A stretch of 64,000 nucleotides of DNA from Candidatus Omnitrophota bacterium. Its GTDB lineage: Bacteria; Omnitrophota; Gorgyraeia; JAGLLT01. This document shows, piece by piece, positions 1,147-58,581 of the stretch. The stretch spans positions 34,381 through 98,380 of the forward strand of contig JAGLLT010000039.1 in NCBI GenBank assembly GCA_023140385.1, written 5' to 3'. How positions within the stretch are numbered: position 1 is the stretch's first letter; every line of letters begins with the position of its first letter. Both the position numbers and the translations under genes were made by a program. A model generated the notes under the pieces. That model was not told the DNA's origin. It did no database searches and saw only the letters and a list, made by a program, of their open reading frames with translations.

Positions 1147-1163
1147 ATCAATGAGGGGTATCT

Positions 1164-2234
1164 ATGATTAATATAAACAAACTACTAATGGAATGTATAG
1201 ATAAGGGCGGGTCTGATCTGCATCTGACTGTGGGCAAGCCTCCCATACTCAGGCTGGACGGCCGCCTTGTGTCTCTGGATTTTCCTGAATTGAAACCGGA
1301 TGATGTAGAAAGCATGATGACTCAGATTACTGATGAAGAAAAAAGGCGCAAAGTTAGTGAGGTAGGCGGCTGTGACTTTGGTTTTGGTTTTGGCAAGAAC
1401 AGGTTTAGGGCATCAGTCTACCGCGGGAGAGGGGTAATAGGGATATCACTCCGGCTTATTCCCTCCGAACTACTTACTTTTAGTGAATTAGGATTGTCGG
1501 ACAAAGTAAGGGATCTGCTTTTTAGAACGAGGGGCCTGATTTTAGTTACCGGCCCGACCGGTTCAGGCAAAAGCACGACGCTGGCAACAATGATAAATTA
1601 CATAAATACAAATATTGACTGTCACATAATAACCATTGAAGATCCCATTGAATATTACCATCAGCATAAAAAGAGCATTATAACTCAAAGAGAGGTGGGT
1701 ATGGATGTGCCGTCATTCTCAGAGGCGATAATCAGGGGGTTGAGAAGCGACCCCGATGTTATCCTGGTAGGAGAGATGCGCGATCTGCCGACAATACAGG
1801 CAGCCCTTCTCGCGGCGGAAACAGGCCATCTGGTTTTTGCTACTCTCCATACTGTTAATGCCGCCCAGACGGTTGACAGGGTGGTAAACTCTTTTGCTAT
1901 TCATCAACAGGAGCAGGTGAGAGCACAACTTTCAGCCTGTATTCTGGCGGTCTTATCGCAAAAACTTTTACTGAGGAAGTCCAAAAAAGGGCGCGTTGCC
2001 TGTTTTGAAGTTATGGTGTCTACTTCTTCCGTACAGAGTCTAATACGGGAAAAAAAGACCTTTAGGATACCTTCTGAACTTCAAACGGGCTCAAAGTACG
2101 GCATGAAGCCTTTTGACTTTTCTCTTATTGAACTTTATCAAAATGGTATAATATCCAAAGATACGGCTTATAAAAACGCTTTTGACAAGGAGCAGTTTGA
2201 CACTATGTTTAAAGAGAGAGTGAATAGAAAATAA
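1164..2234 (+). CDS. pilT: Twitching-motility (retraction) ATPase PilT
   Basis: 356 aa with Walker A LVTGPTGSGKSTTLA and the PilT-type motifs GHLVFATLHT and AIHQQEQVRAQLS. The size matches PilT. A GAGGGG RBS lies upstream. Confidence 0.8.
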   Translation: MININKLLMECIDKGGSDLHLTVGKPPILRLDGRLVSLDFPELKPDDVESMMTQITDEEKRRKVSEVGGCDFGFGFGKNRFRASVYRGRGVIGISLRLIPSELLTFSELGLSDKVRDLLFRTRGLILVTGPTGSGKSTTLATMINYINTNIDCHIITIEDPIEYYHQHKKSIITQREVGMDVPSFSEAIIRGLRSDPDVILVGEMRDLPTIQAALLAAETGHLVFATLHTVNAAQTVDRVVNSFAIHQQEQVRAQLSACILAVLSQKLLLRKSKKGRVACFEVMVSTSSVQSLIREKKTFRIPSELQTGSKYGMKPFDFSLIELYQNGIISKDTAYKNAFDKEQFDTMFKERVNRK

Positions 2235-3958: not shown

Positions 3959-3974
3959 AGAAAGGGTATAAAAT

Positions 3975-4135
3975 AACCAAGATATACCCAATGGGCACAA
4001 GCAAGAAACAATAACCAAATAATAACCAATGACCAAATTCGAATAACCAAACCAAGGCAGGAGCGAATGTTTGATGATTGGTTATTGAATATTGGTAATT
4101 GTTTGTATCTTGTATCTTGGTTATTGGTGATTTAA
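3975..4135. repeat. Intergenic array of ATAACCAA direct repeats (at least 5 copies) followed by inverted TTGGTTAT/GTATCTTGG copies, forming an imperfect long palindrome between pilB and pilC
   Basis: Read directly from the sequence. The left arm contains aataaccaa, ataaccaa and ccaagatatac. The right arm contains ttggttatt (x2) and gtatcttg (x2). Confidence 0.5.
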
Positions 4136-4185
4136 ACTTAAATATTTTCGACAATACAGGTGGAAAGACTAAGGAGGAGTAAACA

Positions 4186-5481
4186 TTGTCTAAGTTTGAG
4201 TATAAGGCTATAAATTCGAATGGGAAAGAGATATCCGGTTTTGTAGATGCCGTTAATACGCAGGAAGCTATCGGACGCATTAAGGATAAAGGGTATTATC
4301 CCATTCAACTTACTGAAACTGAGGATAAGTTCGTGTCTGAACCGGTGTCCACTTCCGGGGGGCATGTAAAAGCGCCTGTCAAAAAGGGCGGAGTGAGCAA
4401 AGAAATCGTAATTCCTTTTTTAGGTATAGGTGTTGTTAAGAGTCAGGATGTAGCCCTTTTTACCCGCCAGCTGGCCACGCTTATCGATGCCGGCTTGCCC
4501 CTGGTGAGAAGCCTGAATGTTTTGCATGACCAGTTGAAACTGGGGCCTTTAAAAGATGTCATAGAAAGCCTTTCCAAAGAAGTTTCGGCTGGAGGAACTT
4601 TAAGTGAAGCTTTGGCCAAGTATCCGAAAATTTTTAACTCCTTGTATATTAATATGATAAAGGCGGGTGAAGCCGGCGGCGTACTGGAGATAGTTCTGGA
4701 ACGGTTGGCGGAATTCAACGAAAAAAGTTTGGCCCTCATCGGAAAGGTTAAAGCGGCTATGGCCTACCCTGTTCTGGTGGTAGTTTTTTCTTCGGCTGTA
4801 CTTTTATTTTTAACTCTTTTCCTTATACCTAAATTTATGGATATTTTTGCTTCTATGGACATAGAAGAAATGCCGGTGCCGACAATGCTTATAATGAATT
4901 TTTCAAGGATGTTTAAAAATCCATTGTGTTTAGGTTTAGGCTTGGGGTTGGTGGCTGCTTTAATAATTTTATATAAAACCTTTTCAAAGATGAAAGGCTT
5001 TAAATTATTTATTGCTAAAATAAAACTGCGTGTGCCGGTGGCAGGGGAGTTGACGAGGAAGATTGAAGTTGCTATGTTCTCACGGACACTCGGCACCCTG
5101 ATATCAAGCGGGGTTCCTATTTTACAGGCCTTGAGAATTACCAGGGGCACAATGAGTAATGAACTTATATCCCAGGCTTTAGGCCGTGTGCACGATAGTA
5201 TCAGAGAGGGTGAATCTATTGCCGCCCCTCTTAAAGCAAGCGGAGCTTTTCCTCTTATGGTTGTCAATATGATTGATGTCGGGGAAGAAACAGGTTCCCT
5301 TGATAATATGTTGATCAAGGTGGCGGATATATATGATGGCGAAGTGGATACTACCATAAGCGCGCTTACCTCGATAATTGAGCCTTTTTTAATTATCAGC
5401 ATGGGCCTTATTGTCGGCTTTATCGTTATCGCGATGTTTTTGCCCTTAATTCAGTTGATGTCAAGTATTGGCGTGAATTAA
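4186..5481 (+). CDS. pilC: Type IV pilus / T2SS inner-membrane platform protein PilC/GspF
   Basis: TTG start with an AGGAGG RBS. The N-terminus MSKFEYKAINSNGKEISG is typical of PilC. The protein has two GspF repeats and three transmembrane (TM) segments. Confidence 0.85.
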   Translation: MSKFEYKAINSNGKEISGFVDAVNTQEAIGRIKDKGYYPIQLTETEDKFVSEPVSTSGGHVKAPVKKGGVSKEIVIPFLGIGVVKSQDVALFTRQLATLIDAGLPLVRSLNVLHDQLKLGPLKDVIESLSKEVSAGGTLSEALAKYPKIFNSLYINMIKAGEAGGVLEIVLERLAEFNEKSLALIGKVKAAMAYPVLVVVFSSAVLLFLTLFLIPKFMDIFASMDIEEMPVPTMLIMNFSRMFKNPLCLGLGLGLVAALIILYKTFSKMKGFKLFIAKIKLRVPVAGELTRKIEVAMFSRTLGTLISSGVPILQALRITRGTMSNELISQALGRVHDSIREGESIAAPLKASGAFPLMVVNMIDVGEETGSLDNMLIKVADIYDGEVDTTISALTSIIEPFLIISMGLIVGFIVIAMFLPLIQLMSSIGVN

Positions 5482-5512
5482 AGAAGAGGTTAATCGATGA
5501 TTATTGGCGTTG

Positions 5513-5541
5513 TTGAGTTAAGCCGGGAAATATGGTATAAT
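5513..5541 (+). promoter_or_regulatory. Candidate sigma70 promoter for the pseudopilin operon (TTGAGT-17-TATAAT)
   Basis: Read from the sequence: ttgagt taagccgggaaatatgg tataat. Confidence 0.4.
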
Positions 5542-5561
5542 TGTTTTGAGAGGATACTGGT

Positions 5562-5984
5562 GTGAAAAAGAGCGGATTTACTCTTATAGAGATGATGGTT
5601 GTGCTGATTATTATGGGCATTTTGGCGGGCTTGGTGACCAGTGCCACTATCAAAACTTTGCAGGACGCGAAGAAGAGCGAAGCGGAGGTAGTTATTTCAG
5701 CGGTTGCCTCAGCCTTAGCCAGATATGAGTCTGACATTGGCGATTATCCACCGGGGAACGGTTCAGGTAACGCTTTTTGGTACTACCTGCAGGATGATAG
5801 GAGCCTTGATGTTTCCTCGGCATGGAACGGGCCCTATATGACCTTTGATAATGATGATATATCAGGTAACGCGGTAAAAGACCCTTGGGGCAATGCTTAT
5901 AACTATAAGAACTACCCAGGGGTTCATAATCCCGCCTTTGTTGATATAGAGGATGGTTCCGGAGAAGATGTTAATAACTGGTGA
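5562..5984 (+). CDS. GspG-like major pseudopilin, paralog 1 (prepilin class III signal)
   Basis: KKSG|FTLIEMMVVLIIMGIL prepilin cleavage/methylation motif. GspG-like core with YESDIGDYPP...WNGPYM...DPWGNAYNY. Confidence 0.75.
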   Translation: MKKSGFTLIEMMVVLIIMGILAGLVTSATIKTLQDAKKSEAEVVISAVASALARYESDIGDYPPGNGSGNAFWYYLQDDRSLDVSSAWNGPYMTFDNDDISGNAVKDPWGNAYNYKNYPGVHNPAFVDIEDGSGEDVNNW

Positions 5985-6442
5985 GAAAGATGAAAAATAA
6001 AGGTTTTACCCTAATTGAGATGATAGTGGTTATGACTATTATCGGCATCCTGGCCGCTTTAATTTCGGCGGCGACCTTTAGGGCTATAGAGGATGCTAAA
6101 GAAAGTAAAGCGGCGGCGGCTATTTCCGCCGTAGAAGCGGCTCTGGCAATGTATGAATCTGACGTAGCAGGTTATCCTCTGCAAGCCGCCGGCGATAATG
6201 CCTTTAAATCCCATCTCCAGAATGATGATGGCGCGGTTGGCTGGAACGGCCCATATATGAACTTTATAGATGAAGACCTGGACAAGCCTGCCGCGATAGG
6301 AGGAACCAAGTATATGGATCCCTGGGGCAATGCCTACCAGTATAAATGTCCGGGTAATAATGGTGTTTATGATATCTGGTCTTGCGGTAATGACGGAGTT
6401 GATGATAGTGGCGGCGGAGATGATATTAATGCCTGGGATTAA
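5981..6442 (+). CDS. GspG-like major pseudopilin, paralog 2
   Basis: KG|FTLIEM N-terminus and the same GspG-like core. It ends ...GNDGVDDSGGGDDINAWD. Translation may begin at GTG 5981 or at ATG 5990. Confidence 0.75.
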   Translation: MRKMKNKGFTLIEMIVVMTIIGILAALISAATFRAIEDAKESKAAAAISAVEAALAMYESDVAGYPLQAAGDNAFKSHLQNDDGAVGWNGPYMNFIDEDLDKPAAIGGTKYMDPWGNAYQYKCPGNNGVYDIWSCGNDGVDDSGGGDDINAWD

Positions 6443-6471
6443 GGTTGTACTATTAAGATAAATGGTGGTTT

Positions 6472-6942
6472 ATGGTGAAAAAAGTCAGGATTAAAAGAAA
6501 TAAGCGCTTAAAAGGCTTTACACTTATAGAGATGATGTTTGTGATTGTTATTATCGGCATCCTGGCCAGTTTGATGACTACCGGAGCCTTCAGGGCTATC
6601 AGGGAGGCGAGAGAAGAGAAGGCCAAAGTTGCCATCTCGGCCATAGAGGCCGCCCTTGAGATGTACAAACTTGATGTGGGCTCTTATCCGGCGGGAGACG
6701 GCTCAGGCAACAGCTTTAAATCCCACCTGCAAAATGATGATGGCGCGGTTGGTTGGAGCGGGCCCTATATGAGTTTCAACTCCACAAACAACAGTATAAA
6801 TGATCCTTGGGATAATGCCTACCGGTATAAATGCCCGGGCACTAGTCACGGTAGTACTGAAAATCCCCTTGATATCTGGTCATGCGGCAATGATGAAGTT
6901 GATAACAGCGGCGGCGGGGATGACCTTAACACATGGGATTAA
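6472..6942 (+). CDS. GspG-like major pseudopilin, paralog 3 (long basic leader)
   Basis: Leader MVKKVRIKRNKRLKG|FTLIEMM. Its C-terminus is nearly identical to that of paralog 2. The upstream leader block is duplicated before 6972. Confidence 0.75.
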   Translation: MVKKVRIKRNKRLKGFTLIEMMFVIVIIGILASLMTTGAFRAIREAREEKAKVAISAIEAALEMYKLDVGSYPAGDGSGNSFKSHLQNDDGAVGWSGPYMSFNSTNNSINDPWDNAYRYKCPGTSHGSTENPLDIWSCGNDEVDNSGGGDDLNTWD

Positions 6943-6971
6943 GGCTGGACTGTTAAGATAAATGGTGGTTT

Positions 6972-7523
6972 ATGATGAGAAAAGTCAGGATTAAAAGAAA
7001 TAAATTCTTAAAAGGTTTTACCCTGATGGAAATGATGGTGGTAATTGCCATAATGTTTATTGTAGTTGCCGTAGCAATGCCCAACTTCTGGGGCGGCCGC
7101 GGTAGTAAGGAGCACAAAGGAGCCGCCAGAAGAATTGCCTCAACCTTGCAAGTTGCTAAAGGTTGTGCCGAGGCTCAGAATGTTGTTCATCACTTCCTCG
7201 CCTGGATAAACTCAGGCAACACTATCAGTATGGATATATATAAGACTACCTATGCAACCTTTCCACCCGCGAACAAGGTGGGTAAAAGCGAAAAAATGAC
7301 CCTGTCAGCCCCCTTTAATATATCAACTACCTTAGATGTTCCCAGTGATGGTAGTACCTGGGGCGCGTACTATATTAAATTCAATCCTGAGGGAAGCGCC
7401 GATGACGGTGACGCCGCCATCGGAGATGAGACCATCACTATCTGGAATACAGCTACCGGAAAGTCTATTGATATTACCATTTCAGAGGATACGGGCTGTA
7501 TCTCTATCGGAGATCTTTATTAG
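6972..7523 (+). CDS. Minor pseudopilin, GspH/FimT-like
   Basis: Leader MMRKVRIKRNKFLKG|FTLMEMM (a duplicated leader) followed by a hydrophobic helix and a 183-aa body. Confidence 0.6.
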   Translation: MMRKVRIKRNKFLKGFTLMEMMVVIAIMFIVVAVAMPNFWGGRGSKEHKGAARRIASTLQVAKGCAEAQNVVHHFLAWINSGNTISMDIYKTTYATFPPANKVGKSEKMTLSAPFNISTTLDVPSDGSTWGAYYIKFNPEGSADDGDAAIGDETITIWNTATGKSIDITISEDTGCISIGDLY

Positions 7524-7597
7524 AAGGAAAGGTTCTCTTGTATTTCTTTCCCTGAAATTTCAGCAAAATGATACAGTTATACAGCAAAATATTTTGC

Positions 7598-7627
7598 TTG
7601 ACAGTTATCCTTTTCTATTGTTAAAAT
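7598..7627 (+). promoter_or_regulatory. Candidate sigma70 promoter (TTGACA-17-TAAAAT) overlapped by the 14-bp perfect palindrome GCAAAATATTTTGC
   Basis: Read from the sequence just upstream of the PEP-CTERM gene. Confidence 0.45.
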
Positions 7628-7729
7628 AAACAAACGGGCTTTATATCTTATTTTTAACTTTCTATCTATCTTGCATGTTTGTTTAAAAGGGATTTTTCCG
7701 GCAAGATAACAAAGGCGGAAAGGAGTATT

Positions 7730-8485
7730 ATGAGAAGGTTTGTTCTTGCAATTTTATTATTATTTGTAGCTTTAAGCGTTTGTTCATTATCAAACGCCCA
7801 ACAGATTGCCCCCCGCAAATGGTCTCAACTGCCCGATATGGAGTGGGGTTTTGATGTATATTCAACAATTATGCCGTACGGTTACAGTAGTAATGTCGCT
7901 GATGACTGGCTCTGCACCAACGGACTGCCTATTACCGATATCCACTGGTGGGGTTCATACGGTGATTGGTCTATGGACGCGCGTCCGGAAAATACTATAA
8001 CCGGTTTTCAGATAGATATATTTGGCTATTATGCGCCGTACCCATTTTATATTCCTCACGCGAGATATAATCTTACTATAGAAGAAGTGAATGAGACCTA
8101 CTGCGGCTTACAGGAATATACAGGACACAGCGCATTTGAGTACTCTATTATACTTGATGAACCCTTTAATCAGGAAGAAGGAAGTACCTACTGGCTGATG
8201 ATAGCGGCTTATTTAGAAGATGGGACTTCTTATGAGTGGGGCTGGAAAACAACTGATCCTGATTCAAGGTATGGTTGCGGCGCGGTTAAATACACAGGAG
8301 ATAGTTGGGAGTGGATTCCAATTGAATACAGCGATTACGTAGATCCAAGTCATCCCTATTATGATTACGGCCCGGTTAATATGGCCTTTGAGCTGACTAC
8401 TATCCCTGAACCGGCCGCGATAATTATGCTGGGAAGTTTGGCTACCGGATTGTTCGGCATAGCAGGCATAAAAAGAAAAAGGTAA
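7730..8485 (+). CDS. Secreted Trp/Tyr-rich protein with a C-terminal PEP-CTERM sorting signal
   Basis: AGGAG RBS. N-terminal signal peptide MRRFVLAILLLFVALSVCSLSNA. The C-terminus IPEPAAIIMLGSLATGLFGIAGIKRKR* has PEP, a hydrophobic TM segment and a basic tail. Confidence 0.7.
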   Translation: MRRFVLAILLLFVALSVCSLSNAQQIAPRKWSQLPDMEWGFDVYSTIMPYGYSSNVADDWLCTNGLPITDIHWWGSYGDWSMDARPENTITGFQIDIFGYYAPYPFYIPHARYNLTIEEVNETYCGLQEYTGHSAFEYSIILDEPFNQEEGSTYWLMIAAYLEDGTSYEWGWKTTDPDSRYGCGAVKYTGDSWEWIPIEYSDYVDPSHPYYDYGPVNMAFELTTIPEPAAIIMLGSLATGLFGIAGIKRKR

Positions 8486-8566
8486 AAAAGGTTACACCTA
8501 TTTAATTCCTGACTCTAACTATAATAGCAGTCTATAAAATAGGTGTGGCCTTTTTTTCAGATAAAG

Positions 8567-9049
8567 ATGATTGATAAAGGTAAGTTAACGGGATTTACCC
8601 TGATTGAGCTTTTAGTTGTTTTGCTTATTGCCGGCGTAGTAACGGCAATAGCTGTTCCTTACTGTTGGGGCGGGTATTCAAGCGCGGAGGTTAAAGCAAG
8701 CAGTAGAACCATTGCTTCGACTTTACGGCGGGCGAAGATTAACGCCGAGGCTCAGGGTAAGCGGTACCGTGTAGACTTTACCCCTTCAGGCAGCTGTCTT
8801 GATATGGATATCTATACAGATTTAAGCAGTTCGACGCCTACCAAGGTAGGTAAAACAGAAAAAATAAAGCTAAGTTCCGCGTTTGTAATTACCACTACCT
8901 TTACTAATTCCAAAGCCCTCTTTACCCCTCACAGCACTTCCAACGGAGGCACCGTTAAAATAAAAAATTTAAAAAATGGTAAAAGTATTAAAATAACCGT
9001 CTTGTCGATTACCGCCAGAATAAAGGTTAAGGATTACGAGGAAGATTAG
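8567..9049 (+). CDS. Minor pseudopilin, GspH/FimT-like paralog
   Basis: KLTG|FTLIELLVVLLIAG prepilin motif. It is paralogous to the 6972 protein (WGG...RTIASTL...AEAQ...MDIY). The start could be GTG 8543 or ATG 8567. Confidence 0.6.
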   Translation: MIDKGKLTGFTLIELLVVLLIAGVVTAIAVPYCWGGYSSAEVKASSRTIASTLRRAKINAEAQGKRYRVDFTPSGSCLDMDIYTDLSSSTPTKVGKTEKIKLSSAFVITTTFTNSKALFTPHSTSNGGTVKIKNLKNGKSIKITVLSITARIKVKDYEED

Positions 9050-9158
9050 TATGCCGGCTTTGGCCGCCCCCGGAGATATATTTTACCCAAAAGCACCTTT
9101 TATTTAATTTGATATAATGGCCTATTTATGGTAAGATATATATGCAGGAGGAATACAA

Positions 9159-9557
9159 ATGAGAAAAAGTAAGGGTTTTACGCTTTTAGAGATTGTGATT
9201 GCCCTGGCCATTCTGGTGATAGGTTTGGTTGGTATTTTGAGCCTCTTTCCGGTAGGTTTTCAGGCCTCCCGCAGAGCCTGTATGCTGACAGAGGCCACCA
9301 TTCATGCTCAGCAGGAGATAGAGAATTTTAAGCGGTTGGGGTATAGTCATCTTGATACAACTTTTACTGATGGGGCAGCTTCTAAGGTTGACGGGACGGC
9401 TGGTTGGACTGACTTTGGCGATGGTATTGAGTGTCAAGTTACTGTTACAGAGATAAACCCGCCCGGCGGCCTCAAAAGCGTTGAAGTTGAAATTCGATGG
9501 AAGGAGAAAGGAAGCTTTAAAAGTGAGACATTTATTACGTATATTGCCGAAAAATAA
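9159..9557 (+). CDS. Minor pseudopilin, GspI/PilV-like
   Basis: MRKSKG|FTLLEIVIALAIL prepilin motif. The protein is 132 aa. Confidence 0.6.
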   Translation: MRKSKGFTLLEIVIALAILVIGLVGILSLFPVGFQASRRACMLTEATIHAQQEIENFKRLGYSHLDTTFTDGAASKVDGTAGWTDFGDGIECQVTVTEINPPGGLKSVEVEIRWKEKGSFKSETFITYIAEK

Positions 9558-10143
9558 AAAAGGCTTTACCTTAATTGAAGTTTTAATAGCCAGCGTCATT
9601 CTGGTGATAGTGATGGGAAGCATGACTTTGGTATTTATCGAAGCCAACCGCGCCTGGACCCAGAGTGAGGCCAAACTGCAGGTTTATCAAAACGCCAGGG
9701 AAGCCCTCAGTCGGATGACAAGAGAACTGGCCTGCGCCTATCAGAGTTCATCGTCTACTACTCTGGAGAAGTTTAACTGGGATGATAGCCAGAAAAAGCT
9801 TGCTTTTACCGCCGCCTTTAATGTTGTTTATGACACCGATGAGTACGATTTAACTAAATTAGGCTACTGGCTTGACACTACGACTATGACACTGAAGAGA
9901 TATAAGAAGGATTATGGCGGCGGCGGCGGCGGAACGTGGAACCCGATAGCGGAAAATATTAAAACTTTAGCTTTCAAATATTACGATCATAAATTAGATA
10001 TTTGGGTCAGCGTTTGGGATCCTGCTGGTGCTACTCCCAGAGATTATTTGCCCAGGGCGGTTGAGATTACCATAACTGCCGAAGATAAACAGGGAAGGTT
10101 TACCAGAACTTTCGTAGATACAGTTTATATACCGATGTCTTAA
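9523..10143 (+). CDS. Minor pseudopilin, GspJ/PilW-like
   Basis: KNKKG|FTLIEVLIASVIL prepilin motif, about 200 aa. GTG 9523 has a GGAGAAAGGA RBS and overlaps the end of the upstream gene. Confidence 0.55.
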   Translation: MRHLLRILPKNKKGFTLIEVLIASVILVIVMGSMTLVFIEANRAWTQSEAKLQVYQNAREALSRMTRELACAYQSSSSTTLEKFNWDDSQKKLAFTAAFNVVYDTDEYDLTKLGYWLDTTTMTLKRYKKDYGGGGGGTWNPIAENIKTLAFKYYDHKLDIWVSVWDPAGATPRDYLPRAVEITITAEDKQGRFTRTFVDTVYIPMS

Positions 10144-33649: not shown

Positions 33650-33681
33650 TCAAAATTTGATTATACTTTTATGGAAAAATT

Positions 33682-33710
33682 AAAAGCCCGCTTGGATAAA
33701 GCGGGCTTTT
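33682..33710. terminator. Bidirectional intrinsic terminator (aaaagcccgc-ttggataaa-gcgggctttt)
   Basis: Perfect GC stem flanked by an A-run and a T-run. It serves the + strand DRTGG gene and the minus-strand micro-ORF. Confidence 0.7.
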
Positions 33711-33738
33711 AAAAAGATAAATTAATTTTATTAAATTC

Positions 33739-33852
33739 TTACTTTTTTTTCTTCGCTGCTTTTTTCTTTACTACCTTTTTCTTTGTAGTTGCTTTTTTCT
33801 TTGTTGTCGCTTTTTTCTTTACTACTTTCTTTTTAGCCGCTTTTTTTGCCAT
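33739..33852 (-). CDS. 37-aa lysine/alanine-rich basic protein (histone H1 tail-like). Not in the six-frame track because it is shorter than 60 aa
   Basis: Minus-strand ATG at 33852 is preceded by a GGAGGTG RBS. Translation is MAKKAAKKKVVKKKATTKKKATTKKKVVKKKAAKKKK* with 18-nt periodic codon repeats. It has its own promoter and terminator. Confidence 0.5.
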   Translation of the reverse strand: MAKKAAKKKVVKKKATTKKKATTKKKVVKKKAAKKKK

Positions 33853-33946: not shown

Positions 33947-33975
33947 TTGACAAAGCGGCTTTAATAAATTATAAT
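33947..33975 (+). promoter_or_regulatory. Consensus sigma70 promoter for the rnf operon (TTGACA-17-TATAAT)
   Basis: ttgaca aagcggctttaataaat tataat, about 50 nt upstream of the rnfC TTG start. Confidence 0.55.
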
Positions 33976-34024: not shown

Positions 34025-35338
34025 TTGTTAAAAACATTTACCGGCGGCATCCGTCTCGCGGGACATAAAGAAGCGACCGCGAACAGCTCAATAGAAATCC
34101 CATCTTTACCCGAGCAGGTTATTATTCCTCTTATTCAGTATGGCGGCAGGTTGTGTGAACCATTAGTAAAAACCGGCGAGAGAGTAAAGGCCGGACAGCT
34201 TATCGGTTTTTCTCAAGACTCTTTGTCGGTTGCTGTGCACTCGAGCATTTCAGGAAAGGTGGCGCGGATAGGCGAGTTTGCTCATCCTGATTTTGAAAAG
34301 GCCAGGGCTATTTTGATAGAATCTGACGGGTTAGACGAAAAGGCGCGGGAGGTTTCGGAAAAAGATTATCAAAGTTTATCGAAGGAAGAATTATTAAATC
34401 GTATAAGAAATGCCGGAGTTGTAGGGATGGGCGGCGCTTCTTTTCCGACTCATGTTAAATTAAACCCGCCGCGTAATAAAAAGGTTAACTTTTTTGTCGT
34501 AAATATGTTTGAGTGTGAGCCCTATATAACTACCGATTATCGTTTAGCAATAGAAAGATGCGAAGAAATTTTATCCGGCGTAAATATTTTTTTAAAAATT
34601 CTTGAGGTAGAAACCGCCTATATTGCCATAGGGGCTAATAAAAAAGAGGCTCTGGATATTTTAAAAGAGAAGACCGCTAAATTTGAGCGGATAAAGATAG
34701 CGGCCCTTAAGCCAAAATTTCCTCAGGGTGAAGAAAAGTGTTTGATAAAGGCGGTGTTAAACAAAGAGGTTCCCCGCGGCAAACTGCCTTATGAGGCGGG
34801 GGCTATTGTTTGTAATCCCCAGACTATAATTACGGTTTATGAAGCTGTTTGTTTAGGCAAGCCTTTGTATGAAAAGGTGATAACGGTTACGGGAAAAGGT
34901 ATAAAAAAACCGGGGAATCTGAAGGTTAGAATTGGAACACTGTTAAAAGATATTATAGAGTATTCCGGCGGAGTATTTGAAGAGGAGATGGAGGTAATCT
35001 TTGGCGGGCCTATGATGGGGAGGGCGCAGACTGATATCAATGTGCCCGTTGTTAAAGGAACGTCGGGAATAATTTTTCTTCCCGCGAAAAGCTTAGACCT
35101 TTCGAAAGAAAGCGCCTGCATCAGGTGCGGCAGATGTGTTGAAGTCTGCCCTGTCAGGCTGCTTCCCCTGGAAATTAATAAGTTAGTAAAGAATAAGAAG
35201 TGGGAAAGATTAAACGCTTATCATATTTCTGAGTGTATGTTGTGCGGAGCCTGTGCTTATGTCTGTCCTTCCAAGATTCCTCTTGTGCAAAGATTAAAGC
35301 TGGGGCAGAAGATTACTAAAAGATTGCAAAAAAAGTAA
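34025..35338 (+). CDS. rnfC: Rnf/Rsx electron transport complex subunit C
   Basis: The N-terminus GGIRLAGHKE...GFSQDSLSVAVHSSISGKV and the NADH/FMN domain are present. Two 4Fe-4S motifs are CIRCGRCVEVCP and CMLCGACAYVCP. Confidence 0.8.
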   Translation: MLKTFTGGIRLAGHKEATANSSIEIPSLPEQVIIPLIQYGGRLCEPLVKTGERVKAGQLIGFSQDSLSVAVHSSISGKVARIGEFAHPDFEKARAILIESDGLDEKAREVSEKDYQSLSKEELLNRIRNAGVVGMGGASFPTHVKLNPPRNKKVNFFVVNMFECEPYITTDYRLAIERCEEILSGVNIFLKILEVETAYIAIGANKKEALDILKEKTAKFERIKIAALKPKFPQGEEKCLIKAVLNKEVPRGKLPYEAGAIVCNPQTIITVYEAVCLGKPLYEKVITVTGKGIKKPGNLKVRIGTLLKDIIEYSGGVFEEEMEVIFGGPMMGRAQTDINVPVVKGTSGIIFLPAKSLDLSKESACIRCGRCVEVCPVRLLPLEINKLVKNKKWERLNAYHISECMLCGACAYVCPSKIPLVQRLKLGQKITKRLQKK

Positions 35339-35411
35339 TATCAAAAGTAGTATGAAAAATCGTAAGGAAACCGAGTAATTTTAAAGGAGTTATATTTATT
35401 ATAAGGAGAGA

Positions 35412-35576
35412 GGGAAATCCTAAATACTAAATCCGAAACACTAAACAAATCCAAATGTCCAAAATACAAAATCCAAAACAGTTTAGAACATTTAGATTTT
35501 GAATTTAGAATTTGTTTAGAATTTAGAAATTAGGGCTTAGAGTTTTTAAACGTATAAAGGGTAAATAGTTTTGACA
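35412..35576. repeat. Intra-operon repeat element copy 1 (imperfect long palindrome + conserved tail gagtttttaaacgtataaagggtaaatagttttg)
   Basis: It shares the gggaaatcctaaatactaa head and the tail with 37699-37888. Internal arms ctaaat.../...atttag are inverted. Confidence 0.6.
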
Positions 35577-35578
35577 AT

Positions 35579-36547
35579 ATGCAAGAAACCGAACAGGAAG
35601 GCGAAATGAGTTTAAATCTAACTACCAATGAACCGCCGTACTTAAAAAGTAGTGATAATACAAGAAAGGTAATGCTGACTGTTATCGCGGCGCTTCTTCC
35701 CGCGGTTATTGCCGGTACCTATTTTTTCGGGCCCAGAGCTTTTTTATTAATTGTCGTTTGCGTAAGTACCTGCGTGGTTTCAGAGTTTTTAATTCAGAGG
35801 CTAAGAGGAGTTAAGACAACCATCGGAGATTTAAGCGCCGTGCTTACAGGTTTATTGCTGGCTCTGGTTTTACCTCCCGGACTGCCTCTCTGGGCGGCTG
35901 TTCTGGGCGCTGTGGTTTCGATATTTTTAGGTAAGCAGATTTTTGGAGGATTGGGCGCGAATATATTTAATCCCGCTTTAATAGGCAGAGCATTTCTAAC
36001 GGCTACCTTTCCTGTTATGATGACCGCCTGGACTAAGCCCTTTAGCCTGGAGGCTGTAACGACGGCTACACCCCTGGGACTGATGAAGTTTGAAGGTGTG
36101 GGAACATCGGTAAGCGCGCTTCTTATGGGAAACACAGCAGGCTGTATAGGTGAGACATCGGCCATAGCTTTAATTCTGGGAGGAATATTTCTTTTATTCA
36201 GGAAGGCGGCCGACTGGAGAATTCCCCTGGGGTATTTGAGCGCCGTAGCTGCTTGCTCCTTCCTTTTAAACTGTTTTAATCCGTCAAAATATCCTTCCGT
36301 GAACTTTGAAATTTTGGCGGGAGGGCTTTTAATAGGCGCTATCTTTATGGCTACTGATCCCGCGACCTCTCCCATTACGAAAAAGGGAAGATGGATATTT
36401 GCCGTAGGCTGCGGGTTGATAACTATAATTATCAGACGCTGGGGAGGACTGCCGGAAGGTGTTATGTATTCTATATTATTTATGAACGCTTTAAGGCCGT
36501 TAATAGACAGATATACCAGGCCTGTTTGTTTTGGAGGCGCGCTGTGA
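35579..36547 (+). CDS. rnfD: Rnf complex subunit D (NqrB-like)
   Basis: Polytopic membrane protein with the FMATDPATSP flavin-attachment motif. Confidence 0.85.
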   Translation: MQETEQEGEMSLNLTTNEPPYLKSSDNTRKVMLTVIAALLPAVIAGTYFFGPRAFLLIVVCVSTCVVSEFLIQRLRGVKTTIGDLSAVLTGLLLALVLPPGLPLWAAVLGAVVSIFLGKQIFGGLGANIFNPALIGRAFLTATFPVMMTAWTKPFSLEAVTTATPLGLMKFEGVGTSVSALLMGNTAGCIGETSAIALILGGIFLLFRKAADWRIPLGYLSAVAACSFLLNCFNPSKYPSVNFEILAGGLLIGAIFMATDPATSPITKKGRWIFAVGCGLITIIIRRWGGLPEGVMYSILFMNALRPLIDRYTRPVCFGGAL

Positions 36548-37104
36548 AAAAAGGTTTGAAAATAACCCTGACTCTTACTTTAATCGCGGTTTTATCAGGA
36601 GCAATTCTGGCAGAGGTATATAAAGTAACCGTTGAAGATATTAAGGCCAATCAGAAAAAGGAGATAGAGGAGGCTGTTTTTAGTGTTTTACCCGGGGCGA
36701 AAGAGTATAAAAGAGAGACCCGCGGTAGCCGGGAGTTTTTTAAATGTTTTGACGATAAAGCGGAGTTGCGCGGTATCGCCTTTGTGGCGGAAGGCATTGG
36801 TTATCAGGATATAATTAAGGTTGTGGTGGGAGTGGACAGCGGCCTGTCTAAAATTACGGGAATAAGAGTAATTGCCCACAATGAAACGCCCGGCCTGGGA
36901 GCAAAGATAAGCGAGGGTTGGTTTGAGGAGCAGTTTAAGGGCTTGTCTGCCGCGGTAAGACTGGATTTGGTTAAAGGTGAACCGGATAAAAAAAATCAGA
37001 TTCAGGCAATTACCGGGGCAACTATCTCCTCGCAGGCCTTGGTGGATATTATTAATAAAGAGATAGAGGATATCAAAAAGCATAAGGTAGGCAATTGTGA
37101 CTAA
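36544..37104 (+). CDS. rnfG: Rnf complex subunit G (FMN-binding)
   Basis: GTG start overlaps the rnfD stop. N-terminal TM helix and the FMN-binding motif ITGATISS. Confidence 0.8.
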   Translation: MKKGLKITLTLTLIAVLSGAILAEVYKVTVEDIKANQKKEIEEAVFSVLPGAKEYKRETRGSREFFKCFDDKAELRGIAFVAEGIGYQDIIKVVVGVDSGLSKITGIRVIAHNETPGLGAKISEGWFEEQFKGLSAAVRLDLVKGEPDKKNQIQAITGATISSQALVDIINKEIEDIKKHKVGNCD

Positions 37105-37711
37105 AACTCCGGTAATATTAAAAGATTTTGCTAAAGGGCTCTGGCAGGAAAATCCTGTATTCCGGCTTTTGATTGGTATGTGCCCTACCCTGGCAGTGAC
37201 TTCTCAGGCGCAAAACGGCCTTGCTATGGGTTTGGCCACATCCTTTACCCTGATTGCTTCAAGTACCATTGTTTCCATTTTCAGGAAACTGATTCCTAAA
37301 GAAGTAAGAATTCCTTCTTATATATTAATTATCGCTACTTTTGTAACCATTGTTTCTCTTTATTTACAGGCCAAATTTCCGGATATAAGCAAGGACCTGG
37401 GCCCTTATATACCTTTAATAATAGTTAACTGTCTCATCCTGGGGAGGCAGGAGGTCTTTGCCTCAAAAAATCCGACACATAGAGCCGCGGCTGACGCTTT
37501 AGGGATGGGACTGGGATTTACTATTTCCCTCGTAGCCCTGGGGATGGTGAGAGAACTGCTTGGCTCCGGAACTATCTTCTCCTTTAAAGTTTTAGGAGAC
37601 GGTTTTAGGCCGTGGATTATTATGCTGACCCCTCCCGGAGCTTTTTTAAGCCTGGGACTGATGCTGGGAATGATAAATATTATTGACAGGTTGTTGAAAG
37701 GGAAATCCTAA
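37097..37711 (+). CDS. rnfE: Rnf complex subunit E
   Basis: NCLILGRQEVFASKN and LTPPGAFLSLGLMLGM match the RnfE/RsxE pattern. Confidence 0.8.
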   Translation: MTKTPVILKDFAKGLWQENPVFRLLIGMCPTLAVTSQAQNGLAMGLATSFTLIASSTIVSIFRKLIPKEVRIPSYILIIATFVTIVSLYLQAKFPDISKDLGPYIPLIIVNCLILGRQEVFASKNPTHRAAADALGMGLGFTISLVALGMVRELLGSGTIFSFKVLGDGFRPWIIMLTPPGAFLSLGLMLGMINIIDRLLKGKS

Positions 37712-37888
37712 ATACTAAGCACTAAATACTAAACAAATCCAAATATCCAAAATACAAATGACCAAAACAAAGACACTTAAGGTTTATAACATTTGAGCAT
37801 TAGAATTTTGAAATTATTTAGGATTTAGATATTAGGATTTAGAGTTTGTTTAGAGTTTTTTAAACGTATAAAGGGTAAATAGTTTTGG
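37699..37888. repeat. Intra-operon repeat element copy 2 (starts within the last codons of rnfE)
   Basis: Same head and tail as copy 1. The central region is a divergent imperfect palindrome. Confidence 0.6.
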
Positions 37889-37918
37889 CAGTACGAAAAA
37901 AGGTGTGAAGGTTAAGAT

Positions 37919-38506
37919 ATGATAAAAGAGTTGATTTTAGTTTTTGTCGCGGCCGTGCTTGTAAATAATTTTGTTTTAAAGTACTTTTTAGGCATATGCC
38001 CCTTTCTGGGTGTATCTGATAATCTGCACTCTGCCGTTAGTATGGGTTTTGCCACAACCTTTGTGATGAGCATTACCGCGCCGGTTGCCTGGTGCATCAA
38101 ACATTTTGTCCTTGATAAATTGGGCCTGCCCTTTCTTGAGTACGTTTGTTTTATAATAGTCATAGCTTCTCTGGTGCAGTTTGTGGAGATGGTTATAAAG
38201 AAATTTTATCCGGCTTTGCACCAGGCTATGGGTATTTATCTGCCGCTGATTACGACTAACTGCGCTATACTCTTTATGGCCCTGCAGTTGGTTTTACGCG
38301 AGTATTCATTATTAAGAAGTATAGTTTTTGGTTTTGGTTCAGGCTTAGGCTTTACACTGGCTATTACCATTATGGCGGGAATCAGGGAAGAGATAGAGTT
38401 TTGTGATGTGCCCCGCTGTCTTAAGGGGCCGGGTATTACCCTGATCATCGCGGGCCTGCTGGCCTTAATCTTTGTAGGTTTAGGCGGGTTAATTAAGGTT
38501 AATTAA
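37919..38506 (+). CDS. rnfA: Rnf complex subunit A
   Basis: LILVFVAAVLVNNFVLKYFLGICPFLGVS is a canonical RnfA N-terminus. Confidence 0.85.
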   Translation: MIKELILVFVAAVLVNNFVLKYFLGICPFLGVSDNLHSAVSMGFATTFVMSITAPVAWCIKHFVLDKLGLPFLEYVCFIIVIASLVQFVEMVIKKFYPALHQAMGIYLPLITTNCAILFMALQLVLREYSLLRSIVFGFGSGLGFTLAITIMAGIREEIEFCDVPRCLKGPGITLIIAGLLALIFVGLGGLIKVN

Positions 38507-38540
38507 ATTTTTAGCATAACTAAAAGGACTTAAGTTTTCA

Positions 38541-38819
38541 ATGGAGAAAACTTTATTATCAATGGCGGTGATGGGCGGTTTGGCAGCCCTTCTGGGAATA
38601 ATATTGAGTGCCGCCTACAGCAAGTTAAAGGTTGAGGAAGATCCCGGAGTTGAGAAAATAACTGAACTCCTGCCCGGCGTCAATTGCGGCGCCTGCGGTT
38701 TTGCCAGCTGTGAGGAGTTTGCCCGACAGCTTGTCAGGAAAGAAACGGATATTGAAAAATGCCGAATTACTTTTAGAAACAAAGAGGTTGTTATGAAGAT
38801 TAAAAATTTGACCCCTTAA
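38541..38819 (+). CDS. rnfB: Rnf complex subunit B, N-terminal domain only (membrane anchor + Cys-cluster, no ferredoxin domains)
   Basis: 92 aa. [17 protein letters not shown] matches the RnfB N-terminal cluster. No ferredoxin CxxCxxCxxxCP motifs are present, and no downstream remnant exists because the pyrR leader follows. Confidence 0.65.
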
Positions 38820-40512: not shown

Positions 40513-41779
40513 AGGAGCGAGAGTAATAAGCCCCGGGGACAATCTTGATAAAGAGATTGATATTCTAATAAAAAAAGGTGTTATTGAGAAAATCGCGAAG
40601 GGCATAAAAGCTCCGAAGGCAAAAATAATTAACGCTAAAGGTAAAGTCGCTGTTCCCGGTTTAATAGATATGCACACCCATCTGAGAGAACCCGGCAGAG
40701 AAGATAAGGAAAGTCTGTATACCGGTTCACTGGCAGCGGTAGCCGGCGGTTTTACGGCAGTTGCCTGTATGGCCAACACTAATCCGCCTCTGGATTCTGA
40801 GCAGGATATGGAGTATATCTATACTGAAGCAAAGAAAATCGGTTTAGTAGATATCCTTCCTATAGCCGCGGTTACTAAAAATATGGAACAGAAGGAACTT
40901 ACGGAAGCGGCTAAGCTAAAGAAGGCCGGCGCTGTGGCTCTTTCCGAGGACGGGCACCCTATCTTAAATAGTAGTTTTATGAGGCACGCTCTTGAGTATG
41001 CCAATATGTACGGTTTAATTATTATCTGCCACTGTGAAGATAAAGCGCTTTCTGCCGGCGGCGTTATGAACGAAGGCTATATGAGCAGTTTGTTGGGATT
41101 AAAGGGCATACCCGCCGAAGCCGAAGCAATAATAGTTAGCAGGGATATTAATTTGGCCAGGAGAACATCCGGGCGTATTCATATAGCTCATGTCAGCTGC
41201 AAAGAGTCTGTCGCTTTAATAAGGCAGGCAAAGAAAGAGGGTGTAAAGATTACGGCTGAGACCTGCCCCCATTATTTTAGCCTTTCTGATGAAGAGCTAA
41301 AAGAGTATGATGCTAATTTTAAGGTTAATCCTCCCTTAAGGGCCAAAGAGGACATAGCCGCTATAAAGGAGGCTTTGGCTGATAACACCATAGATATTAT
41401 TGTCTCCGACCACGCGCCGCATCTGGAAAGCGAGAAGGAGCTGGAATTTGATAGAGCTCCTTTTGGTATGACCGGACTTGAAACTTCGCTGGGTGTGTCC
41501 TACGGCCTGGTTGAGGAAAAGGTGTTATCTTTAGGGGAGTTGGTAAATAAAATGTCGGTAAGGCCTGCCGGGATTTTTGGATTAGATAAAGGCTCTTTAA
41601 AGGAAGGTGACGCCGCCGATATAACCGTTATAGATCTTTCAACATCCTGGGTGGTTAAAAAGGAAAACTTTAAGTCTAAAGGCGGCAACTCCGCCTTTAT
41701 CGGTAAAGAACTAAAAGCCAGGGCAACCGAAGTAATTTTCTCAGGGCGCCTGGTAATGGAGAACGGAAAAGTTTTATAA
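40496..41779 (+). CDS. pyrC: Dihydroorotase
   Basis: [10 protein letters not shown] metal-binding motif. The likely start is ATG 40496 ([11 protein letters not shown]), overlapping the pyrB end. Confidence 0.85.
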
Positions 41780-41796
41780 ACACAGGAGGTAATTGG

Positions 41797-46316: not shown

Positions 46317-46346
46317 AATAGCGTATAGAAAATAGCGTAGAGCGTT

Positions 46347-46467
46347 TAGCGGATAGCGTATAGAAAAAGCAAATATAAAATATTAAAAATCAAAATAACA
46401 TATAAAAAATAGCGGGTACGCCGGGTTGATGGGTTTGCTGTTTTTTTGCTTTTATACGCTATCCGCT
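46347..46467. repeat. Long hairpin element: ~24-bp arms agcggatagcgtatag(gaa)aaagcaaa / tttgcttttatacgctatccgct around a ~70-nt AT-rich loop, preceded by atagcgta direct repeats
   Basis: Read from the sequence after pyrE. Confidence 0.5.
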
Positions 46468-46561
46468 AGTACTTTGTAATCAAATAACTTGACAGTTATT
46501 TTGATAGACGTATAATGATGTTATTGCTTTAGTTGTTACTAATTTGAAAGGGATAGTTACA

Positions 46562-50971: not shown

Positions 50972-51014
50972 GAAGCTTTCCCTGCATCATAATCGGGAAA
51001 GCTTCGTTTTTTTG
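50972..51014 (+). terminator. Strong intrinsic terminator (gaagctttccc / gggaaagcttc + gttttttttg)
   Basis: 11-bp stem, 12-nt loop and a T-run. Confidence 0.75.
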
Positions 51015-51079: not shown

Positions 51080-51154
51080 GGCGGCGTAGCCAAGCGGTAA
51101 GGCAGTGGTCTGCAAAACCATTATTCAGCGGTTCGAGTCCGCTCGCCGCCTCCA
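51080..51154 (+). tRNA. tRNA-Cys (anticodon GCA), CCA-encoded
   Basis: Cloverleaf derived by hand. Acceptor stem ggcggcg/cgccgcc. Anticodon loop cuGCAaa. T-arm agcgg-ttcgagt-ccgct. Confidence 0.85.
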
Positions 51155-51462
51155 GCCGTCGCTCCTACGGAGCTATGGCTGGCAGGCCAGCCTACATTAA
51201 AGTTACAGCTGGCAGGCCCAGCCTGTATTGAAGCTATGATTGGCAGGTCAGTGTTTACGTTGAAGTTTTTTATCCGTTGCAATTGACATAGAAACAAAGG
51301 TGGGTTTGCGTTATATTTAACAGTAAAAGCGGGTTTAATTGTAGCTAGTAGTAAAAGCGGGTTTATCAGTTGAAGTTTATTTCTAAAGTAAAAGCAGGTT
51401 TATCTGTTATGGTTTATTTCTAAAGTAAAAGCGGGCCTGCCCGCCGTAGCTTTAGCGAAGGC
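51155..51462. repeat. tRNA-flanking modular repeats: a 38-nt post-tRNA block, ~31-nt decaying tandem repeats (ctggcaggccagcct...) and 37-nt tandem units beginning gtaaaagc
   Basis: The 38-mer gccgtcgctcctacggagctatggctggcaggccagcc is identical at 51155-51192 and 51550-51587. gtaaaagc occurs at 51351, 51388 and 51425 with 37-nt phase, and the tRNA begins one period later. Confidence 0.55.
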
Positions 51463-51549
51463 GGGCGAGTGGTGGAATGGCAGACACGTGGGACTTAAAA
51501 TCCCATGGCTGAATAAGCCGTGTGGGTTCGACTCCCACCTCGCCCACCA
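51463..51549 (+). tRNA. tRNA-Leu (anticodon TAA), long variable arm, CCA-encoded
   Basis: Acceptor stem gggcgag/ctcgccc. Anticodon loop cuUAAaa. Variable stem ggct/agcc. T-arm gtggg-ttcgact-cccac. Confidence 0.85.
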
Positions 51550-51732
51550 GCCGTCGCTCCTACGGAGCTATGGCTGGCAGGCCAGCCCGCACACCTTATG
51601 AACCTTTTTATCCGTTGAAGCTGGAAACAAAAAGGTGGGCTTAAGTTGTAGCTAACAGTAAAAGCAGGTTTATCTGTTATGGTTTATTTCTAAAGTAAAA
51701 GCGGGCCTGCCCGCCGTAGCTTTAGCGAAGGC
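51550..51732. repeat. Second copy of the tRNA-flanking module (38-nt post-tRNA block plus two 37-nt gtaaaagc units and a GC hairpin pre-tRNA block)
   Basis: 51640-51732 is nearly identical to 51378-51462. Confidence 0.55.
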
Positions 51733-51809
51733 GGGCGGTTGGCGCAGTTGGTTAGCGCGCCACGTTGACATCGTGGAGGTCACTGGTTCGAATCCAGTAC
51801 CGCCCACCA
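51733..51809 (+). tRNA. tRNA-Val (anticodon GAC), CCA-encoded
   Basis: Acceptor stem gggcggt/accgccc. Anticodon loop uuGACau. T-arm actgg-ttcgaat-ccagt. Confidence 0.85.
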
Positions 51810-58333: not shown

Positions 58334-58581
58334 TAGAGAAAGTCCAACCTGACCGCTATTGCAAAAATGCTTGCTTTTGAGCTTGGATTGTGATATATTT
58401 AGTGTAGATAATAATTTCCCTGCTATGTACGTGATGAGCAGATAGACTTGAGCCAACACAGTTTGCCCGGGAACCTAACTTCATACTGCCCGCGGGCGGA
58501 AATGAGAAGGTACCCACTTAGTAGACCGGGTTCAAGCCTATCACGCACGCACGGCATCCGCGGGGATTTCTTTTTAGGCCT

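Follow-up and report, generated by a model that had tools for sequence, protein, structure and literature searches.

The rnf operon on contig JAGLLT010000039.1 of a Candidatus Omnitrophota bacterium (assembly GCA_023140385.1) contains two copies of an imperfect palindromic element, one between rnfC and rnfD and one between rnfE and rnfA. The stretch analysed as a whole, 64,000 nt corresponding to positions 34,381 to 98,380 of the contig, is called the window, and positions given without a contig name refer to it. We consider it probable that the two copies were inserted independently of each other and represent a small, non-coding and non-autonomous element resembling transposable elements of the miniature inverted-repeat kind (MITEs), which would insert in the A/G-rich terminal codons of upstream genes. 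So understood, the element belongs to a familiar kind of selfish repeat, within which it forms a new family. A MITE-like mobile repeat was one of several roles offered in the original prediction, and comparison with relatives bears this one out, because copy 2 is polymorphic with respect to a 99.4% identical strain, the site of copy 1 is empty in a sister species, the corresponding junctions are tight in nine relatives and the core of the element has more than 100 relatives elsewhere. The operon, rnfCDGEAB, is complete at 34025-38819 on the + strand as judged by Pfam, and the parts needed for the following argument are:

33947-33975, + strand: promoter of the rnf operon, TTGACA-17-TATAAT, 12 of 12 consensus positions (consensus scan only)
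34025-35338, + strand: rnfC (Pfam), Lys-rich C-terminal tail trimmed by insertion 1
35336-35411, + strand: left part of insertion 1 (76 nt), not in copy 2, holding the rnfC stop codon (35336-35338)
35412-35580, + strand: copy 1 as a whole, right end set by homology between the copies and by the empty site
35412-35545, + strand: palindromic core of copy 1, CTAAAT / ATTTAG arms with heptamer period, fitting the family profile
35546-35580, + strand: right-end tail of copy 1, terminating in TAAATAGTTTTGACAATAT, with 31 nt identical to copy 2
35606-36547, + strand: rnfD, start conserved with the sister species, own Shine-Dalgarno sequence (SD) GGAAGG
37097-37711, + strand: rnfE (Pfam), tail trimmed by insertion 2
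37700-37894, + strand: copy 2 as a whole, right end from homology between the copies and from the empty site
37700-37858, + strand: palindromic core of copy 2, including the rnfE stop codon (37709-37711), missing in contigs L097 and L098
37859-37894, + strand: right-end tail of copy 2, terminating in TAAATAGTTTTGGCAGTAC, boundary fixed by L097 resuming at 37896
37919-38506, + strand: rnfA (Pfam), own SD GAAGG

The common head described earlier, GGGAAATCCTAAATACTAA, comprises 19 nt that are identical in both copies and has exactly two matches in the window (35412 and 37700), where 0.06 would be expected by chance. The near-identical tail was likewise confirmed, its 21-nt core AAACGTATAAAGGGTAAATAG occurring exactly twice (35548 and 37862; 0.01 expected). 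Formal alignment of the copies yielded a mean column identity of 84%, with perfect agreement in the head and in 31 nt of the tail and a more diverged interior with indels. The imperfect palindromic arms are real as well: pairing by gapped alignment yielded 47 Watson-Crick pairs for copy 1 and 45 for copy 2. A gapless inverted-repeat search did not list the element, as its arms differ by indels. Copy 2 indeed starts within the last codons of rnfE, with the stop codon of this gene inside the element. The statement that the next gene follows within 3-30 nt was correct in placing the genes close downstream and has to be revised in detail: both downstream genes start approximately 25 nt past the element, rnfD from 35606, a start that is conserved and preceded by an SD. 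As annotated, rnfD (322 aa) starts at 35579, which overlaps the end of the element and adds nine residues (MQETEQEGE) without counterpart in the sister species. No open reading frame (ORF) of at least 20 aa is present in copy 2, and copy 1 contains only two short chance antisense ORFs that run into the flanks. The full insertions measure 195 nt for copy 2 and 245 nt for copy 1 together with the 76 nt on its left (35336-35411), which probably belong to the same insertion and may represent the left end of a full-length element. The sister species lacks this left part, for which no significant match was found elsewhere and which weakly resembles the left ends of two other insertions of the genus.

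Relatives that lack the element identify both copies as insertions. In the nearest GTDB genome, Ca. Omnitrophota CSMAG_1507 (L017), which represents a sister species with 93-94% nucleotide identity, copy 1 is absent and the end of rnfC overlaps the start of rnfD by ATGA; at this junction the window is longer by about 256 nt (35336-35591). Copy 2 is absent from L097, a contig found via a 210-aa variant in the 90% RnfE cluster that matches the window protein up to the C-terminal tail. L097 is 99.4% identical to the window over 1.8 kb (35904-37705) and resumes at 37896, and its 210-aa rnfE overlaps rnfA by ATGA. It originates from the same metagenome assembly as L004, which carries copy 2, and a further contig with 91% identity, L098, also lacks this copy. 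The C-D and E-A spacers are between -11 and +15 nt long in the nine nearest relatives, except for the E-A junction of L017, where a palindromic element of another kind is found with a duplicated AAAAAAG on its two sides. The tight junctions in the relatives together with the empty sites in L017, L097 and L098 indicate that the empty, translationally coupled junctions are ancestral and that both copies are derived insertions. The rnfE-rnfA element of L017 (4398-4571 of that contig) consists of three hairpins of GATTACA type, with a fold z-score of about -5.5 to -6. The last of the three, a small hairpin with the sequence GAAGCTTTCCC-TGCATYATAATC-GGGAAAG, recurs as a terminator-like structure at window position 50972-51005, upstream of a tRNA cluster.

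RnfC and RnfE end in Lys/Arg tails, and the A-rich codons of these tails are where the two insertions lie, in each case just 5' of the next gene's ribosome-binding site. RnfC ends with RLQKK* in the window as compared with RLKGKNRDAK* in the sister species, and RnfE ends with RLLKGKS* as compared with RFLKRKKSVKVKI* in the strain without the insertion, so that the upstream proteins are shortened by 5-6 C-terminal residues and their stop codons are now supplied by the insert. The distance from stop to start has grown to about 210-270 nt at both junctions. Since stop and start codons are pushed apart and the ATGA overlaps are gone, translational coupling is lost, which is the opposite of the translational-coupling signal that the element had been suggested to carry. 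The native SDs of rnfD (GGAAGG) and rnfA (GAAGG) are kept 3' of the element and, judging from the sequence, both genes must start translation from them. Both copies would be co-transcribed from the rnf promoter at 33947-33975.

The element had also been described as an internal duplication within one operon, which is misleading. The cores of copy 1 and copy 2 are only ~84-87% alike and differ by indels, while the window and L097 differ by ~0.5%, and copy 2 is therefore too unlike copy 1 to have been copied from it within the time that this divergence represents. Copy 2 would rather derive either from a closer donor copy elsewhere in the genome or from recombination that brought in a filled allele. 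Divergence from L097 amounts to 3% in the 99 nt downstream of copy 2, as compared with 0.5% upstream. In both cases the family must comprise more than the two copies seen, with at least one further donor.

Both copies are composite: a palindromic core of 135-160 nt is joined to a right end of ~35-45 nt, and this right end was found only in the genus concerned. The right-end motif TAAATA(G)TTTT(C)GRCARTAY stops exactly at the insertion boundary in four elements of the genus, namely copy 1, copy 2, an insertion at window position 3959-4157 and a 350-nt insertion in L017, and the right-end sequence reads TAAATAGTTTTGRCARTAY. All four right ends point to the downstream gene and lie 22-31 nt before its start, and the terminal 19-mer of the copy 1 tail matches the right end at 4139-4157 with 3 mismatches. 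The third of these elements is:

3959-4157, + strand: related insertion (~200 nt) with an AATAACC heptamer palindrome, between the genes for a type II secretion system (T2SS) E-type ATPase and T2SS F

This insertion is absent from the sister-species contigs L238 and L239, in which the spacer is 18 nt long, and a duplication of ~9 bp, AAAGGAAGG, is readable at its ends. The fourth element (8467-8816 of L017) is non-coding and has an exact target duplication, TTTTATAA, and the corresponding site of the window at ~41770-41785 (~41775) is empty. All four elements have the same direction on the leading strand (GC skew +0.17). The assignment of the window to the leading strand is based on a GC skew that is uniformly positive over 1-64000 (+0.11 to +0.23) and on the genes examined, which are all on the + strand. 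As further observations on these two relatives, the palindrome of 3959-4157 has RNA fold z-scores of -2.6 in sense and -4.4 in antisense orientation, the stretch 3995-4130 is a heptamer-periodic palindrome of unrelated sequence in the same contig, and the L017 insertion carries inverted repeats of GGATTAAG type and is located downstream of an amidohydrolase/dihydroorotase-type gene (Pfam). A degenerate form of the right-end pattern had 107 matches in viral contigs, which is about the chance level for ~15.5 effective bases, and was not used; a 19-mer from the tail had no match in IMG/VR viral contigs. The left part of copy 1 and the tail looked by eye as if they might form a terminal inverted repeat, but their resemblance was not significant.

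The palindromic core is much more widespread than the right end. A profile built from the two copies finds related palindromes in Omnitrophota-type genomes, with two copies in L086 (E-values of 1e-34 to 1e-37) and further ones in L019 and L076. With a 19-nt degenerate pattern common to copy 1, copy 2 and L019, at least 120 metagenome contigs and 19 viral contigs were collected, and these 139 loci contained at least 109 non-overlapping nhmmer members with E-values down to 1e-23. The members are end-to-end palindromes of ~107-200 nt with arms of 7-nt period and termini of the form (GG)AAATCCTAA…TTAGGATTT(CC), and the core boxes CTAAACAA / TTGTTTAG are kept in nearly all of 45 aligned members. 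Family matches end where the palindrome ends, and the 35-45-nt tail of copies 1 and 2 was not among the matches listed. Members occupy intergenic spacers, 17 of them in the same orientation as the genes and 11 in the opposite one; between co-directional genes they typically lie in the spacer from stop codon to SD and end 16-23 nt before the next start codon, and they are also found between convergent and divergent genes in roughly genomic proportions. Four IMG/VR contigs with members (L110, L115, L106 and L116) are true phage fragments with a gene for an HK97-type major capsid, a portal or an SU10-type adaptor protein, and in each of them one to three members of the CTAAAT family, complete or partial, lie between head-module genes. 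In L106 and L116, a copy is located upstream of the portal gene, and the portal proteins are 61% identical. A blastn search in distant mode of GenBank phages and PLSDB plasmids gave no match, although the low-complexity filter may have masked the query, and a literature search that included literal sequence strings gave nothing relevant to the element.

In the mechanism that we favor, the element would be moved in trans by a presumed transposase and would land in the A/G-rich last codons of rnfC or rnfE, 5' of the ribosome-binding site of rnfD or rnfA. From there it would ride passively on the operon transcript that starts at 33947-33975, and no dedicated function would be required for its presence. 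The comparisons above show that the element is an insertion, is polymorphic and composite and belongs to a family, whereas movement by a transposase, a target preference and lack of function are what we infer. In L086, a distant member of the phylum (Ca. Omnitrophota MEGAHIT-group-1.613, 97-10134), eight long palindromes lie within 12 kb, including palindromes at four rnf junctions (C-D, D-G, E-A and A-B), one of which is a G+C-rich REP-like hairpin, and those at rnfE-A and rnfA-B are two ~93% identical copies of a palindrome different from ours. This pair indicates that two copies of one palindrome arose within one rnf operon at least twice. Such repeated hits are most simply explained by A-rich Lys-tail codons as preferred targets and by the few positions that tolerate an insert, which would be those between a stop codon and an SD.

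Several results weigh against mobility of this kind. In ~82 kb of the contig, only two copies were found and both are in one operon; neither the rest of the window nor 10 kb on each side of it holds a further one. The full insertions have asymmetric ends, and their terminal inverted repeats were no better than those of shuffled sequences (p 0.17-0.52). For insertion 1, two segments may represent a target-site duplication:

35326-35335, + strand: possible left target-site duplication of insertion 1, GCAAAAAAAG
35581-35591, + strand: possible right target-site duplication of insertion 1, GCAAGAAACCG

Both align to a single TTAAAAGGAAAAA in the empty site of L017, with a match that is imperfect and of low complexity. 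No clean target duplication is present at copy 2 in comparison with the empty site of L097, and none is visible at the ends of the core palindromes in the metagenome relatives. The exact 21-mer of the tail had no match in GTDB genomes and JGI metagenome contigs, collections that do not contain the source metagenome-assembled genome (MAG). No transposase or autonomous parent was found, in a search that was far from exhaustive: no pair of half-elements flanking a gene was seen in the 139 loci, and no transposase domain in the annotated parts of the contig. Furthermore, pairwise identity is ~72-89% within one genome and between unrelated contigs alike, and in the phage contigs L110 and L115, whose capsids are only 47% and whose adaptors are 44% identical, one copy precedes the capsid gene and another follows the adaptor gene in both. 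The uniform identity and the shared phage junctions would also fit a sequence under functional constraint, and they could also result from a shared target preference plus low-complexity similarity. A comparison of similarity within and between phages was considered as a test of inheritance versus re-insertion and proved uninformative, as all pairs fall within 72-89%.

Bacterial MITEs inside operons are known from Correia/NEMIS elements of Neisseria, RUP elements of Streptococcus pneumoniae and Nezha elements of cyanobacteria. Like these, the rnf element is small (100-250 nt), non-coding, hairpin-forming, located in intergenic spacers, polymorphic between strains, represented by several families per genome and co-transcribed with flanking genes. 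Correia elements have 26-nt terminal inverted repeats, a TA duplication, a site for integration host factor, documented promoters and RNase III cleavage, whereas here the terminal repeats are not significant, the duplication is ~8-10 bp or unclear and no promoter was found. ERIC/IRU elements are 127-bp imperfect palindromes of enterobacteria and Yersinia that share with our element the long imperfect palindrome in transcribed intergenic regions, the occurrence in either orientation and a presence that varies among close relatives; they differ in that there is no sequence similarity and in that our core is built of 7-nt units, is also found in phage contigs and is followed by an asymmetric right end. 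Further repeats with similar features are the heptanucleotide tandem repeats (STRR) of heterocystous cyanobacteria and the MIRUs of mycobacteria. An intergenic 7-nt period is common to STRRs, which form direct arrays, and to the present element, in which two inverted arrays form a palindrome. MIRUs are similarly inserted at operon junctions and interact with the flanking stop and start codons, but they keep coupling via small overlapping ORFs, while the insertions described here abolish the ATGA overlap. PATEs, which derive from IS200/IS605, show no target duplication, insert 3' of a fixed 4-5-nt target and have a replication strand bias; in comparison, the four genus elements do share one direction on the leading strand, but 8-9-bp duplications accompany two of them, and a fixed tetranucleotide was not seen in the flanks.

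The strongest competitor to a passively carried MITE-like insertion is a functional cis-acting RNA module in polycistronic transcripts, which takes up the RNA processing or stability role of the original prediction. It would be either a long, imperfect double-stranded hairpin, serving as a substrate of RNase III or as a barrier to exonucleases, or a ribosome standby array of SD-like AGGA motifs. Such a module would set the expression ratio of the flanking genes, with mobility serving only as delivery. We regard this as unlikely. Elements in stop-to-SD spacers between co-directional genes, the shared junctions of the phages (two in L110/L115, one upstream of portal in L106/L116) and the retention of the boxes CTAAACAA / TTGTTTAG all speak for it, and a palindrome makes a hairpin in either orientation, so that the lack of an orientation bias does not count as counter-evidence. 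As long imperfect hairpins between genes of polycistronic messages, including phage structural operons, the elements also resemble the RNase III hairpins of phage T7, although the T7 sites are not known to form a dispersed family that host chromosomes share, and copy 1 has a weak fold on the sense strand. Folding of the transcribed strand speaks against this idea. The expectation that the element folds better than shuffled controls failed for copy 1 on the mRNA (+) strand (-23.9 kcal/mol, z -0.45) and held to a modest extent for copy 2 (z -2.1). Better folds were obtained for the minus strand (z -3.3 for both copies), since on the sense strand C·A accounts for most of the transition mismatches; copy 1 has 8 C·A mismatches that become G·U if read on the minus strand. 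In favor of the module, the antisense folds of the two copies, and the folds of most members, are well below those of shuffled sequences or at -25 to -45 kcal/mol. Differences between copy 1 and copy 2 are one-sided and include no compensatory changes, and for 45 aligned members RNAalifold recovered no more than 12 consistent pairs, the covariation term being -0.17. In Rfam, matches above the gathering threshold within the window were confined to 6S RNA and three tRNAs, and at E ≤ 5 the region 35300-38000 had only a chance microRNA match (17.8 bits vs 82). Members between convergent or divergent genes and close relatives that do without elements at the same junctions likewise argue against the RNA module, and taken together these tests lend no positive support to a specific RNA function. 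Two related candidates were dropped. An antisense RNA was suggested by the G·U bias, but the ratios of 8:2 and 6:2 in related copies are not significant and the bias is absent in 34 members between co-directional genes, 15 of which are weaker and 19 stronger in sense orientation (p 0.71). Heptamers that guarantee stop codons in all three frames were considered, too, and this property is true for only 24 of 45 members.

A broader version of the functional idea is that the CTAAAT palindrome represents a conserved, orientation-independent cis-module shared by phage head-gene operons and host operons and carried by MITE-like carriers and phages. Candidate roles of such a module are a processing or stability site made of double-stranded RNA, an AGGA standby site masked by UCCU repeats, or an array for a heptamer-reading protein. 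The orthologous phage junctions at 47% capsid identity, the conserved boxes and the flat similarity levels are compatible with this version, which we regard as unlikely. If it were true, the insertions at rnfC-D and rnfE-A would deliberately re-tune the stoichiometry of the Rnf subunits.

It appears improbable that the palindrome acts as a REP/BIME-like repeat at the DNA level, i.e. as phased heptamers that are bound by a nucleoid protein, gyrase or a RAYT-like enzyme that also spreads them, with formation of a cruciform or a single-stranded DNA hairpin. The core is a palindrome from end to end without visible target duplication at its ends, its boxes are strongly conserved over unrelated contigs, a strict 7-nt period recurs in several unrelated palindromes of the same genome and there is no orientation bias, all of which would suit such a repeat. 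REP and BIME sequences (REP superfamilies are defined in PMC3733652) are also palindromic extragenic repeats between co-directional genes without obvious target duplication at the palindrome ends. In contrast to REPs of 20-40 nt with a GTAG/CGTC tag, the present element is far longer (135-200 nt), its single units are not palindromic, and by reading no tetranucleotide of this type was seen at its ends. No RAYT gene was found nearby, and neither a RAYT nor an IS200/IS605-type gene was seen in the annotated parts of the contig. In addition, insertions of the genus have 8-9-bp duplications, which HUH single-strand transposases are not known to make.

The original prediction had further considered that the element carries internal promoters, and a version of this in which the tail provides an outward promoter or half of one, and thereby a separate transcription start for rnfD and rnfA, is very improbable. 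The copy 1 tail ends in a perfect TTGACA (35572-35577), and a consensus promoter of the form TTGACR-16/17-TATAAT comes after the palindrome at 46320-46480 as well as after the one located 0.8 kb upstream of the window. However, neither copy has a -10 hexamer at a distance of 16-18 nt, where the SD is located instead, copy 2 has TTGGCA, and the scan found no promoter-like site in the tails; the only consensus promoter is the one upstream of rnfC (33947-33975). The sole match of the promoter scan inside a copy is a weak one (9/12) in the arm of copy 1 at 35482-35511. Nor did a scan detect a terminator-like site in either copy, the T-run of the tail being 7-20 nt past the base of an A/U-rich stem. 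A sigma-54 promoter and a Xer/dif-like site in the tail were both rejected by eye only. The palindromes at 46320-46480 and at 8042-8195 of L009 (0.8 kb upstream of the window) are of ATAGCGT type and form a second repeat family of the contig; each starts a few nt from the upstream stop codon and precedes a consensus promoter, TTGACA-16-TATAAT and TTGACG-17-TATAAT, respectively.

That the copies are an assembly or chimera artefact, as could be feared from short-read assemblies that break at the repeat, has next to no probability, since the identical sequence and context are present in DAOWFJ010000038.1 (GCA_030638025.1, a 155.7-kb contig) and in independent ENA assemblies, and L001, L002 and L003 span both copies. 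Altogether, the same sequence occurs in an NCBI MAG and in seven further assemblies, four from ENA and three from Logan; several of the assemblies break within the element, and this recurrence in several independent assemblies argues against an artefact. Short-read assemblies of several samples (L002, L004-L008) stop either within the head or where the identical tail begins, at its first base, and these breakpoints indicate that the element fragments assemblies of this population.

The insertions indicate that mobile repeats remodel an operon central to energy conservation in Omnitrophota, for which metagenomes are the only source of knowledge. As strain variants with the remodelled form and with the intact form were present in one sample, they offer a natural comparison with and without coupling in a membrane complex. 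The core represents a widespread palindrome family that was not found in Rfam or in the searched literature and is worth cataloguing. For practical purposes, the element breaks short-read assemblies and shifts gene-start calls, as in the case of the annotated rnfD start inside it, and it may mark a link between phage and host.

Apart from the element, three further features of the window were recorded. On the minus strand at 33680-33852, upstream of rnfC, a 37-aa ORF as called is followed by a strong bidirectional terminator hairpin; the ORF was judged Lys-rich from its A-rich 18/15-nt repeats, and the same arrangement is found in L019-L021. A 6S RNA gene is located at 58414-58570 (Rfam RF00013, 83 bits). 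Finally, the region 51080-51806 contains three tRNA genes with repeated spacers (direct-repeat families D3, D6 and D10, e.g. AGTAAAAGCGGGTTTATC…) and G+C-rich inverted repeats and looks like a locally duplicated tRNA-spacer unit.

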